Positions 11,140-15,917 are shown, counted from the first letter of the stretch. The stretch: DNA of 18,430 bases from Promethearchaeota archaeon (GCA_030603385.1 JAUVXW010000047.1:1-18430); one strand, 5' to 3'. The notes: generated by a model from the letters alone, not told the origin. Numbers and translations are program-made.

Positions 11140-11177
11140 CATTACTTATTAATAGTTTGTGTTGTGAACAATTTTAC

Positions 11178-11996
11178 ATGCCACAAGAAAATAGAAAGTT
11201 CACTACTATTGGACAGATTGATGCTACAGGCGTAAGGGGGCCTCATGAGAAAGAATTAGAAGATATTAGTAATGCTAAATTCTCTATCTTCATAAATGTT
11301 GATTTAAAAGCCCTTGAGGCTATCATTAATAATGATTTAGGGGGAATAATTGAAAACATTGGTTTCAATGAGGATTGGACTATTACTATTGAAATGTTTC
11401 CTGAAGTTAACATTCATATGGCATATTCTTATTTTGGTGATGAATTTGGAGATGGTATTGAAGCAGGATTTAGGTTTTATTTCTCAGGAAGGTATGTTAC
11501 TTGGGTACCTGGTGAGGACAGTGCAACATTTATCGATATTGTTATGGATTTTATTAAGAGAAAGCTAAAGGGAGAAGAACCATTTGAAAAAAATTATAAC
11601 TCAAAAACAGATTTGATGCAAAAAGTATTATTACAAAGAGGGAAACCATTCAAATTTTTACAAGAAAAAGATCAGGAAAAACTTGAAAGTTTTCTAGGAG
11701 CTAAAGTATGGAAAACTGTTAATAGTTGGCGAATTAAAAAAGAAATATTTCCAGAAATCTTCACAGAAATTATGTGGGATGAAGAGAATGGTTTAGATAT
11801 AAAATTCCATGGTGAAAAATTAGCAAAAAACTTAGGGAGCTATCATGCAGAATTTATTGGTATATTTGTTTTAAATCATATTCTTCGATATATTACTGTG
11901 CACAATCTAGAGAAGGAATTGCCTGATATTTGCTATATTATGTTCTCTCGATACTATACAAAAAATATTGGAAAATGGGATCACAGGACAAGATAA
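11178..11996 (+). CDS. Hypothetical protein with two tandem DUF3786-like repeats
   Basis: First repeat LGG...EDW.....FPEV.I......GDEF......F.F.......PGED resembles DUF3786. Second repeat LGA.....W......FPEIFTEIMWDEE...I.F. ATG at 11178 preferred over the TTG at 11157. Confidence 0.55.
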   Translation: MPQENRKFTTIGQIDATGVRGPHEKELEDISNAKFSIFINVDLKALEAIINNDLGGIIENIGFNEDWTITIEMFPEVNIHMAYSYFGDEFGDGIEAGFRFYFSGRYVTWVPGEDSATFIDIVMDFIKRKLKGEEPFEKNYNSKTDLMQKVLLQRGKPFKFLQEKDQEKLESFLGAKVWKTVNSWRIKKEIFPEIFTEIMWDEENGLDIKFHGEKLAKNLGSYHAEFIGIFVLNHILRYITVHNLEKELPDICYIMFSRYYTKNIGKWDHRTR

Positions 11997-12012: not shown

Positions 12013-12573
12013 TTATATCGCTGTCCAAAGTTGAGCTCTCCCTTTTTTTTCCGCACGTTTGATTTTTTTAGAATTCTCTAAATCAGACATAACCTTCCAA
12101 ATTTGAGAGTTGCTTAATTTAAAGTATCGTCTTAATTCTGGAGTTGACATTTTGGTATCTGTTAATAAATTTGGAATCAATCTTTTTATTTCCTCAACAG
12201 TGTTTTCATCAGAATCTTTAGGTACTTCAGCTTCAGGTTTTTCTATTATTTCCATCTCTGTAATAATTCTAGATGCAACCTTATTCAATTGTTTAATATT
12301 ATCATCCAGATTTTGAGGTTTCATAAATAAACAGCACAACTCGAGATCTCTTGGAAAAGCTACTATATAGAAGTTATCATATAAGATAGCTCTAGGTTTT
12401 TTCCCTGATGCGTTTCCACCTCGAAACGCTAGATAAAAATTCATTGCAAAATCATCTAATTTTACCAAATCTTTCGTTTTGTTATATTCCTTTTTCCATT
12501 TAAGAAAAGGGCCATCAATCATATCAAATCCAATTAAAGCAGCCCCAAATAATTCCTGTTCTTTAAAATTCAT
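12013..12573 (-). CDS. Putative uDENN/longin domain fused to a C-terminal winged helix-turn-helix
   Basis: N-terminus LFGAALIGFDMIDGPFLKW with a beta-beta-alpha-beta-beta-beta-alpha pattern, an acidic linker, then EEIKRLIPNLLTDTKMSTPELRRYFKLSNSQIWKVMSDLENSKKIKRAEKKGRAQLWTAI (wHTH pattern). The start overlaps the GTPase stop (ATGA at 12570-12573). Confidence 0.6.
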   Translation of the reverse strand: MNFKEQELFGAALIGFDMIDGPFLKWKKEYNKTKDLVKLDDFAMNFYLAFRGGNASGKKPRAILYDNFYIVAFPRDLELCCLFMKPQNLDDNIKQLNKVASRIITEMEIIEKPEAEVPKDSDENTVEEIKRLIPNLLTDTKMSTPELRRYFKLSNSQIWKVMSDLENSKKIKRAEKKGRAQLWTAI

Positions 12574-13091: not shown

Positions 13092-13216
13092 AGTAGTAAT
13101 AATACTAAAAATGAGTTATTAAGAAACAATGATTTAAAGAAAAATATGAATCTGGATAATATCGACGTATTACCAACTAGTTTCAAATATTATTGTTCCA
13201 TAAAGGTGTAAAAACA

Positions 13217-14030: not shown

Positions 14031-15917
14031 TTAGATATTATAAAGAAAAAATAATAATATAAGCGAAAAAAATGTAGGTATTATTAAACTAAATGTTAAT
14101 AAGCTCTGTGAAACTCTAATACCTTCTTTAAGGGTATCAATAATAGCATTAAAGTATCGCGGATTACCCCAAATCTTAACCTTACGTTCTATAGAGTCAT
14201 TATAATAAAACTCAACGGGTTCTATATTATCTTCTGCTTCTTGGATTAAAATTTCTAATTTTTCTAAAATTTCATCGATTTTTATTTTGTCTCCAATAGG
14301 GGAATAACCTCTGGCTGAAAATTGTCTTGCTACAGTATGAGAATCAGAAGTAGTAATTTCTCCTCTTTCTATTCCCCTGTTTTGTAACATATTTAGGACA
14401 TAAGACCGAATATCTATGAACGCATTATTCCCATCAAAATGAATTAAAGCTGTTGTCTGATCAGTATTGGAATTTTGAAATAAATGGACAACTATGCCAC
14501 CAAAACCTATTCCATCTTTTTCTGAGTAATTTTTAAATGCACCTTTTGCAACCCCATATAGCATCGGAACCTTTTGAGAATTTTGAACTTTTTTACTTTC
14601 AATATAGTTTTGGGTTACATTAAATAAATCTTGAGCTTCAATCGAATCCCTTTTGATTAATATCTCATTGCCAATAATGGCATTATGAGAATCAACAATA
14701 ATGATATCTTTAAATCCCTTTGAAATAACATATTTTCTTATCCGATCTCCTACACTTGATTCAATATCGTCAGAAGGAAGCGGATGTCTTGTAATAAATA
14801 TAATGGGGGTATTACCAACTTCAATTCCAATGAGTTTAGCAGAATTTGAGATCTTTCTCGTAAAGTCTTTGACTTCCTTAACCCAATTTATATTTGGGTT
14901 ATTATTAATAGCATCAATATCTTGTTTTATTCTCTTCATAATGATTTCAACATACCCTTGAGATGTTAAATTTTGAGTATGATCATTAGTCGTGTGATAT
15001 ACAGTGGTTCCTGGGATGTGCTCAAATGCTTTATATATATGTTCAGGTAAGTCAGAAGAACCACATGTCTTAAATGGACCAAAATGAATATGTGGAACAA
15101 CGAATAAGCCTTTAATTTCTTTTGAAGATGTACTTCGGATAACTAAATACTGAATTCTGACATTAGATTTTATCCCAACCCTCTCAAAGTAACTTTCTAT
15201 AAGCTCATCATTCCCCTCTGTCATCATAGAAAGAATAAAAGCTCTAATAAAAGGATAACCACTCATACCGGTTGCTTCCCTATATATATTGCTCACTTGA
15301 AACAAACCTCTTCGATATGGGAATGCAAACAACATAGCGCATGCAACAAAAAAGATTATAGCTCTTACAAAGAAATCACTATCAAACTGTCCAATATAGA
15401 GGCTATAGAGGGTAATAGCAGTTAAGGGTTGTAAGAGTGATAAAATCATGTATCCAGGACGACCTACAGTAGTAAATGAAAAATAAATGACAAAAGCAAC
15501 AATATAAGATATAATCGATCCCATTATAAAAAATACTTCTTGATACCAGATGTTTTGGAGTAAAATGGCGACTATTTGGCCAAAAATAAAAGTAACTTCA
15601 ATCATAGCACTAAAATATACGTTCATTTGGATTGACCATCCATTTGGAGGGGCTCGCAATATAGGTGCTTTTTTTGAATAAAATAACATAGAAAAACTAG
15701 CACCTAAACCTGAGAGCAGCAAAAATAAACCTACAAACCTAAAGAAATGTAAAAAATCTAAATCATTTATTAGAATATAATTTAATATCAACGACAATAG
15801 TCCAAACACAATTGGAGTTCCAAGAAAAGTAGAATAAGCTAACTTTCTTGACTGGAAAAATTCCATATATGAAATTATTCCGGGGATTTGACGAGAGGGT
15901 GTCTTTTTAATAAACAT
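14031..15917 (-). CDS. DUF2070 family membrane protein (predicted neutral-ceramidase-like lipid hydrolase)
   Basis: About six N-terminal TM helices, then a soluble domain with PHIHFGPF, H..NDH, VDSHN, FDGNN and TSDSH, and a C-terminal TM helix. Confidence 0.85.
   Translation of the reverse strand: MFIKKTPSRQIPGIISYMEFFQSRKLAYSTFLGTPIVFGLLSLILNYILINDLDFLHFFRFVGLFLLLSGLGASFSMLFYSKKAPILRAPPNGWSIQMNVYFSAMIEVTFIFGQIVAILLQNIWYQEVFFIMGSIISYIVAFVIYFSFTTVGRPGYMILSLLQPLTAITLYSLYIGQFDSDFFVRAIIFFVACAMLFAFPYRRGLFQVSNIYREATGMSGYPFIRAFILSMMTEGNDELIESYFERVGIKSNVRIQYLVIRSTSSKEIKGLFVVPHIHFGPFKTCGSSDLPEHIYKAFEHIPGTTVYHTTNDHTQNLTSQGYVEIIMKRIKQDIDAINNNPNINWVKEVKDFTRKISNSAKLIGIEVGNTPIIFITRHPLPSDDIESSVGDRIRKYVISKGFKDIIIVDSHNAIIGNEILIKRDSIEAQDLFNVTQNYIESKKVQNSQKVPMLYGVAKGAFKNYSEKDGIGFGGIVVHLFQNSNTDQTTALIHFDGNNAFIDIRSYVLNMLQNRGIERGEITTSDSHTVARQFSARGYSPIGDKIKIDEILEKLEILIQEAEDNIEPVEFYYNDSIERKVKIWGNPRYFNAIIDTLKEGIRVSQSLLTFSLIIPTFFSLILLFFLYNI

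Follow-up and report, generated by a model that had tools for sequence, protein, structure and literature searches.

Small GTPases and longin/roadblock proteins occur by the dozen in Asgard genomes, and because their genes rarely stand in operons, matching a GTPase to its regulator is hard in these archaea; according to one structural study, the GTPase genes of MK-D1 generally do not share operons with genes for longin or roadblock proteins. The locus described here lies in a window of 18,430 nt from a Promethearchaeota archaeon (JAUVXW010000047.1), and raises the question of what is done by a 186-aa protein that combines a longin-like N-terminal domain with a C-terminal winged helix-turn-helix (wHTH), and whose gene follows directly on that of an Arf-family GTPase (Table 1). 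An earlier note on this DNA had proposed a uDENN/longin-like domain with a candidate arginine finger, fused to a DNA-binding domain, in a GAP or effector of the neighbouring GTPase. The analysis below points to a protein that is probably a GTPase-linked gene regulator.

Table 1. Features of the longin-wHTH locus (window coordinates unless a locus handle is given)
Feature	Position	Strand	Basis or remark
Longin-wHTH gene (P0001)	12013-12573	minus	ORF and translation, 186 aa
Longin/roadblock-fold domain, residues 1-112	12238-12573	minus	AlphaFold2, structural matches
F16-D17-x3-G21-P22 hairpin	12508-12528	minus	end of β1 to start of β2
G52-G53-N-x3-K-K59-P60-R61 loop, helix 1 to β3	12391-12420	minus	family alignment
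R75 codon, β4-β5 turn, proposed arginine finger	12349-12351	minus	AlphaFold2
Acidic flexible linker, residues ~110-125	12199-12246	minus	pLDDT <50 at 110-123
Winged helix-turn-helix, residues 126-186	12016-12198	minus	AlphaFold2, structural matches
Arf-family small GTPase gene (P0002), 173 aa	12570-13091	minus	Pfam Arf 6.8e-19
TATA-like box CTTAATAA	13116-13123	minus	25-32 nt before ATG
Conserved element GTAATACGTCGATATTATCCAGATTCATAT, candidate operator	13144-13173	minus	53-82 nt before GTPase ATG
Multi-pass (7TM) membrane protein, 241 aa	13217-13942	minus	no Pfam/NCBIfam match
DUF2070 protein	14031-15917		farther upstream of GTPase gene
PF0610-type wHTH plus zinc-ribbon regulator genes	L027:3928-4269; L028:2529-2852	plus; minus	by appearance a split version of the fusion

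The coordinates first given for the gene were correct, and the strand, which had been left out, is the minus strand; GC content is ~30%. The 186-aa frame is a real gene and not a chance ORF, since a word-indexed search returned 489 homologues, the gene is present as one copy in its own genome, and it was found in 64 of the 68 genomes sampled from its taxonomic family. Among the 120 homologues listed, identity ranged from 76 to 97% and length from 169 to 189 aa (nearly all 183–189 aa). The sources among the matches listed were Asgard archaea (Promethearchaeota/Lokiarchaeota and other Asgard metagenome bins), and the source-named homologues listed were annotated as hypothetical, with the single exception of one carrying the automatic label 'biotin operon repressor'. 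By these sources, the window comes from an Asgard archaeon of Lokiarchaeia type. The gene was also present in six of the seven sampled genomes of the order's only other family with more than one sampled genome, and the full two-domain form occurred in three other Asgard families (four genomes); in the remaining Asgard families carrying the gene, the match covered the N-terminal domain only, in frames of ~130–165 aa. As only 30 of 1.84 billion cluster representatives had E ≤0.001 in an exhaustive HMMER scan, the family is narrow but strongly constrained. Pfam and NCBIfam scans of the protein gave no family match, and a search for longer fusions (e.g. GTPase-longin) found none, which is weak evidence. 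The query also matched two giant proteins (P0132, 5841 aa, and P0152, 2356 aa) in 19–22 separate stretches with its residues ~83–153, which probably reflects a repeat or low-complexity likeness to the helix and acidic linker.

The solved structures nearest to the GTPase were Arl3, Arl2 and Arf1 (2.6e-14), and its motifs are GSPAVGKT, WDLGGQ and NKQD. Its stop codon overlaps the start of the longin-wHTH gene by 4 nt (ATGA), with AGGAGGGGA located 9 nt upstream of the longin-wHTH ATG. A GTPase gene lies immediately upstream of the two-domain gene and on the same strand in 37/37 places (36 distinct two-domain loci plus the window), which span 89% down to ~33% identity and include other Asgard families, and wherever the ORF ends were read the two genes overlap or are separated by ≤21 nt. 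The orthologous GTPases are 40–91% identical across loci, and the GTPase gene is likewise immediately upstream of an N-domain-only relative (L027). This strictly conserved adjacency of overlapping or nearly abutting genes bears out the functional tie to the neighbouring GTPase that had been suggested. All GTPase orthologues looked at have a proline at the third P-loop position (GxPxVGKT), and two distant ones (L027:3383-3865 and L033:1930-2409, both minus strand) have a switch II of DLAGH instead of DLGGQ, which is Sar1/SR-beta-like, with the SRPRB model also matching.

The majority of the closest loci, though not every one of them, have the gene for the 7TM protein next to the GTPase gene; in L013 and L057, farther off in the same taxonomic family, a DUF2070 gene abuts the GTPase gene in its place. 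A conserved three-gene unit including the 7TM gene was therefore rejected. On the other side, a gene for a 279-aa protein without a Pfam match (11157-11996, plus strand) is convergent to the GTPase operon, and is syntenic at 55–83% identity in all of the closest loci but one (L021, where it is a fragment).

The AlphaFold2 model of the whole protein had a pLDDT of 74, and the N-terminal domain modelled alone reached a pLDDT of 85.4 (pTM 0.71), with strands predicted at residues 8–17, 21–29, 62–64, 69–75 and 78–84, and helices at residues 39–51 and 89–111. The resulting β-β-α-β-β-β-α topology is the longin order, without the N-terminal helix that sets roadblock domains apart from longins (PMC10933270). 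In each of three structural searches, all 50 of the listed matches belonged to the roadblock/longin superfamily (Z 5.5–8.3). The structure scan (VIA) covered 48,161 PDB representatives, and both Foldseek and a second-look alignment, run on the N-terminal domain, agreed with it. The matches included LAMTOR5 (Z 8.0), LAMTOR2/3, dynein LC7, the MK-D1 roadblocks and MglB (7.4), as well as AP sigma/mu, Mon1-Ccz1, BLOC-3, C9orf72 (6.5), TRAPP and a Lokiarchaeal longin, and a shape search of the ESM Atlas added TRAPP, coatomer zeta, DENND11 and a Thorarchaeal Arf-fusion. The predicted fold class, and with it the longin-like domain of the earlier note, is secure by the consistency of these matches; the scores themselves are modest, a Z of 7–8 being the middling range of the tool. 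The longin sub-class appears to lie beyond the reach of structure scores, as GAP longins, roadblocks, adaptins and TRAPP subunits matched alike, and the gaps between NPRL3 (Z 7.3) or C9orf72 (6.5) and LAMTOR, COPI zeta, dynein LC7 or MglB (7.8–8.3) are within noise. The more specific uDENN label is not borne out, with DENN and dDENN modules absent and the protein stopping after the 61-residue wHTH.

The most conserved feature of the family is the FD-x3-GP hairpin within residues 8–26 of the protein (LFGAALIGFDMIDGPFLKW), with F16 and D17 each present in 136/140 aligned members, G21 in 138/140 and P22 in 136/140. The near-fixed positions in this alignment are F16, D17, G21, P22, Y47, F50, G52, G53, P60 and F68, of which D17, G21, P22 and P60 were still invariant once N-domain-only relatives were added. 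A Gly-Pro motif at β1-β2 was reported, in a 2025 survey of GAP complexes with longin domains, to be specific to C9orf72, SMCR8, FLCN and NPRL2, to be absent from non-GAP longins, to occur in one class of Asgard longins too, and to sit in the GTPase pocket of GAP-type longins (PMC12290439). In C9orf72 the essential W33-D34 stands just ahead of G38-P39 (PMC12290439), and mutation of W33/D34 abolishes Arf GAP activity (PMC8213707). The spacing of F16-D17 and G21-P22 is identical to that of C9orf72, and the structural alignment to 7o2w_A placed residues 6–87 of the model on residues 23–120 of the chain. Judged from these alignment ranges, F16 would correspond to W33, provided that the chain is C9orf72 and that β1 is aligned without gaps. 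The likeness of this hairpin to those of C9orf72- and NPRL2-type longins, claimed earlier, is thus upheld, with the motif placed at β1-β2 and the Gly-Pro pair of GAP-type longins found at the end of that loop. A second conserved stretch, the GGN loop between helix 1 and β3, has G52 in 136/140 members, G53 and P60 in 138/140, K59 in 128/140 and R61 in 126/140; by sheet topology it would lie at the same end of the sheet as the GP hairpin and the β4-β5 turn.

Behind a linker of variable length and sequence in the family alignment, AlphaFold2 predicted a winged helix with helices at residues 126–136, 144–151 and 155–167, and wing strands at 171–177 and 180–185. Its structural match to PH1932 (Z 10.5, rmsd 1.7 Å over 61 residues) was accompanied by matches to NolR (Z 10.3), HlyU (9.5), ArsR/SmtB members, MarR, IclR and Z-alpha domains. 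Among profile models, family members matched HTH_11 (7e-8), HTH_5/ArsR (1e-7) and HTH_DeoR (1e-7), and also GntR, TrmB, MarR and PF0610-like_N; for P0001 itself, PDB sequence searches (single-sequence and profile) returned only a weak Lrs14 match (0.027) and a MarR match, and no longin. The recognition helix and wing are strongly conserved in the family alignment, and the wing is strongly basic (KKIKRAEKKGR). The C-terminal domain is a winged helix of the prokaryotic transcription-factor type. The wHTH recognised in the earlier note therefore stands, and its description as FaeA/PapI-type was too narrow, as FaeA (PF04703) was matched by only 3 of 19 members at 1.3e-3 and the HTH_11, ArsR and DeoR models fit better. 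Similarly, the likeness to the C-terminal domains of NPRL2/3 holds for the architecture and fails for the type of domain. ESCRT-II, Rpa2 and Stn1 were also among the winged-helix matches, and winged helices can mediate protein contacts too.

A candidate DNA target is present upstream of the operon, where comparison of 20 loci from the same taxonomic family showed a near-invariant GTAATACGTCGATATTATCCAGATTCATAT block with variable AT-rich flanks. A second block, TTCTTAATAA, is conserved in the upstream alignment at the TATA-like box, and CTTAATAA presumably serves as the TATA box of a near-leaderless mRNA. All 7-mers were counted, with no motif given in advance, in 16 orthologous loci so divergent that their intergenic regions are no longer alignable, and GATATTA was the top over-represented word, present in 9 of the 16 loci versus 1.15 expected from dinucleotide shuffles (p 3.8e-7, with 0/200 shuffled sets reaching the value); these loci are related, so that the statistics overstate their independence, and start codons were estimated from alignments. 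The overlapping words ATATTAC, CGATATT and GGTAATA were next in rank, and one locus (L036) contains three GATATTA-type boxes ~11 nt apart. Genome-wide, GATATTA occurs in only 9.2% of upstream regions and is hence not a general promoter element, and the 19-mer is unique in the genome. No regulon was visible in a search for the 19-mer with ≤2 mismatches (13 matches, versus 18 for the control), matches to a composite two-box pattern in the genome were mostly in coding DNA, and an Rfam search of the window returned nothing. The intergenic region contains many short AT-rich inverted pairs, none convincing alone. The candidate operator may reach farther, as an inverted ATAATAT box (13187-13193, minus strand) stands 24 nt upstream of the GATATTAT box. 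The GATATTA element could also belong to another regulator.

We propose that the 186-aa protein would be a partner dedicated to the Arf-family GTPase with which it is co-translated. Longin-type domains usually dimerise, and the longin domain probably does so here. The GTPase would be held at the conserved sheet end, to which the FD-x3-GP hairpin, the GGN...KKPR loop and the β4-β5 turn all contribute; C9orf72-type and MglB-type platforms grip their GTPases in this way. The acidic flexible linker would connect this platform to the DNA-binding winged helix, which most likely targets the GATATTA element in front of its own operon. DNA binding could then be gated by the nucleotide that the GTPase carries, giving a one-step switch from GTPase to transcription. 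Binding of the GTPase is the step we consider quite likely, and sequence-specific DNA binding is somewhat more probable than its absence. The combined reading, of a GTPase partner that is also an autoregulating DNA binder acting via the candidate GATATTA element and gated by the GTPase state, is the one we favour, tentatively. Rather doubtful is the fuller version, an Asgard small-GTPase-to-DNA switch in which the Arf protein binds a C9orf72/NPRL2-type longin domain joined to a winged helix and its GTP/GDP state sets occupancy of GATATTA boxes at the operon's own promoter and possibly elsewhere, and the same degree of doubt applies to any GAP activity of the longin-wHTH protein.

The alternative that survives best, unlikely as it is, holds that the protein acts on the Arf-like GTPase as MglB or TRAPP/Ragulator do on theirs, either as a GAP lacking a finger or as a GEF, with the winged helix as a mere anchor to the nucleoid or another protein. 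MglB, LAMTOR and TRAPP subunits match the N-terminal domain as well as any GAP longin does (Z 7.4–8.2), GEFs make up most of the longin/roadblock platforms, and MglB works as a GAP although it has no finger. An anchoring role also draws on two relatives that have only the N-terminal domain (L027:2987-3382, minus strand, and P0150) and end in about nine arginines where the winged helix would be; such poly-Arg tails suggest a generic binder of anionic surfaces. However, the strong conservation of the recognition helix and wing, the resemblance to HTH models of transcription factors and the promoter element argue for specific DNA binding, with which a finger-less GAP or GEF activity can coexist. 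In two other Asgard families a gene for a PF0610-type wHTH and zinc-ribbon regulator divergently adjoins the N-domain-only gene, and since the two modules are fused in one lineage and adjacent in others, this suggests that longin and wHTH modules work together; these neighbours and the poly-Arg tails also speak for the reading favoured above. Some neighbours of distant members have longin-like N-termini (L034:2116-2889, plus; L030:3589-4020, plus; L035:2332-2763, minus) and are possible extra platform subunits; one such neighbour (257 aa) ends in a V4R domain (1.7e-8).

It is improbable that the protein is instead a one-component transcription factor, in which the N-terminal domain senses a small molecule or another protein and the GTPase is co-regulated cargo. 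Sensor folds do occur far down the lists of matches (CzcS, Z 5.5; a histidine kinase cluster), and the N-domain-only relatives L029, L031 and L032 are without an adjacent GTPase. Against this stand the adjacency and translational coupling over >30 loci in several Asgard lineages, the top fold matches, which are all GTPase platforms, and the position of the GP motif in a known GTPase pocket (PMC12290439).

The arginine finger of the earlier note was placed at R75, within YIVAFP-R-DLELCCLF and between the last two strands, and the AlphaFold2 model agrees on this position, with R75 at the end of β4, in the two-residue turn before β5. The fingers of NPRL2 (R78) and FLCN (R164) likewise lie in the β4-β5 loop, and the topological argument for R75 as a finger is a reasonable one. 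An arginine-finger GAP, with R75 inserted into the GTPase active site as for NPRL2 R78, FLCN R164 and SMCR8 R147, would also be in keeping with the conserved GP motif beside R75, with the switch II glutamine retained in the GTPase (WDLGGQ), and with the Asgard GP-motif longins with an arginine in such an arrangement that have already been described (PMC12290439). The conservation of R75 speaks against it. Of the 140 aligned members, 87 have R at position 75, 42 have K and 8 have another residue (Q 2, D 2, H 1, E 1, V 1), with 3 gaps, and R and K replace each other among orthologues that are 77–97% identical, whereas the neighbouring P74, D76, L77 and E78 are far steadier. In more distant members with both domains the residue is D, E, H, K or V. 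K59 and R61 of the GGN loop are steadier than R75, yet these too vary in distant members. The conserved catalytic arginine of finger-bearing GAP longins is thus not found in the longin-wHTH family, and an essential finger at R75 is unlikely because the position varies across the 140 members. Furthermore, the loop is far shorter than in the eukaryotic GAPs, and the hydrophobic-D-x3-GP motif is of the type found in C9orf72, the subunit without a finger. We therefore regard the arginine-finger GAP as very improbable, and a finger role for R75 as scarcely more credible; R75 is at most a contact residue and not a catalytic finger, and the protein looks like one of the C9orf72 type, which has no finger, or like an MglB-style platform that also does without one.

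Profiles of NPR2 (PF06218) and Folliculin (PF11704) gave no match to P0001 or its relatives at E up to 10, and the same HMMs searched against its own genome and 301 Asgard genomes found nothing at the longin-wHTH locus, the matches in these whole-genome scans being weak and located elsewhere only. A profile search for N-domain-only relatives gave 22 matches, from Jord-, Frey-, Baldr-, Heimdall- and Hodarchaeal sources, which carried no Pfam tag and hence form no bridge to NPR2. In a feature search of the ESM Atlas, the top-ranking Asgard cluster (19% NPR2) scored 0.78, which is below the trust level and leaves it as a lead only. A miniature NPRL2-like subunit of a larger complex, with the winged helix as a protein-protein module like the GATOR1 C-terminal domains or ESCRT-II, is thus a far-fetched reading, for although the whole model is colinear with chains of complexes that contain GATOR1 over ~195 columns (E 3e-3 to 9e-3) and Asgard NPRL2-like longins with a small C-terminal domain have been reported, the alignment has an rmsd of ~23 Å and reflects shared domain order only, the NPR2 Pfam signal is absent from the locus and its relatives, and the C-terminal domain matches prokaryotic DNA-binding HTH models.

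The reading as a GTPase-linked gene regulator matters for several reasons. Because the pair is strictly conserved and coupled in translation, and a candidate DNA target is at hand, it is directly testable in vitro; it could reveal a role of an Arf-family GTPase in a cell without endomembranes, and bears on whether the longin pocket with the GP motif is older than its use in eukaryotic GAPs. If true, the protein would be a one-polypeptide forerunner of the eukaryotic longin GAP logic that links Rag/Arf GTPases to transcriptional programmes. GP-motif longins and NPRL2-like longins, the latter sometimes with small C-terminal or two-component domains, have already been described in Asgard archaea; the searchable literature yielded no architecture or operon combining Asgard, Arf, longin and winged helix, and gene neighbourhoods are not discussed in the preprint on Arf in Asgard archaea. 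The longin-wHTH/Arf operon thus adds to the Asgard longin/GTPase modules already known, and the GATATTA element is new here.

Compared with known systems, C9orf72 has the same longin fold, the same aromatic-Asp pair followed by three residues and Gly-Pro, no catalytic arginine of its own, and an Arf-family client. The longin-wHTH protein differs in having a wHTH instead of a DENN module, with no SMCR8-like finger-bearing paralogue in the genome, no detectable sequence-profile similarity and a structural Z of only 6.5. NPRL2/NPRL3 and the Asgard NPRL2-like longins (Liu et al.) share the N-terminal GP longin, a basic β4-β5 residue and a later winged-helix-like domain, but in the longin-wHTH family the arginine is not conserved, the C-terminal domain is of the ArsR/HTH_11 type, a PF06218 match is lacking, and the GTPase encoded alongside is Arf-like and not Rag-like. 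With ArsR/SmtB, PH1932 and PF0610-type regulators the C-terminal domain has in common the three-helix bundle and basic hairpin wing (Z 10.5–9.2); it lacks the helices through which ArsR proteins usually dimerise, and dimerisation would therefore need the longin domain. The pairing of roadblock/longin proteins with GTPases is ancient, as in MglA/MglB, and both this system and the actinobacterial conservons (CvnA-D, Mfp) likewise have an operon in which a small GTPase of the Ras superfamily is encoded alongside a partner of the roadblock superfamily. Relative to MglB, for which the fold match is good (Z 7.8), the domain described here has a longin topology without the N-terminal helix, and its GTPase is of the Arf type with an intact DxxGQ. 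The conservons have an HTH-superfamily component as well (CvnC/DUF742) and are believed to link a G protein with the control of genes; the locus described here is without their histidine-kinase component, and unites the platform and the HTH in one polypeptide.
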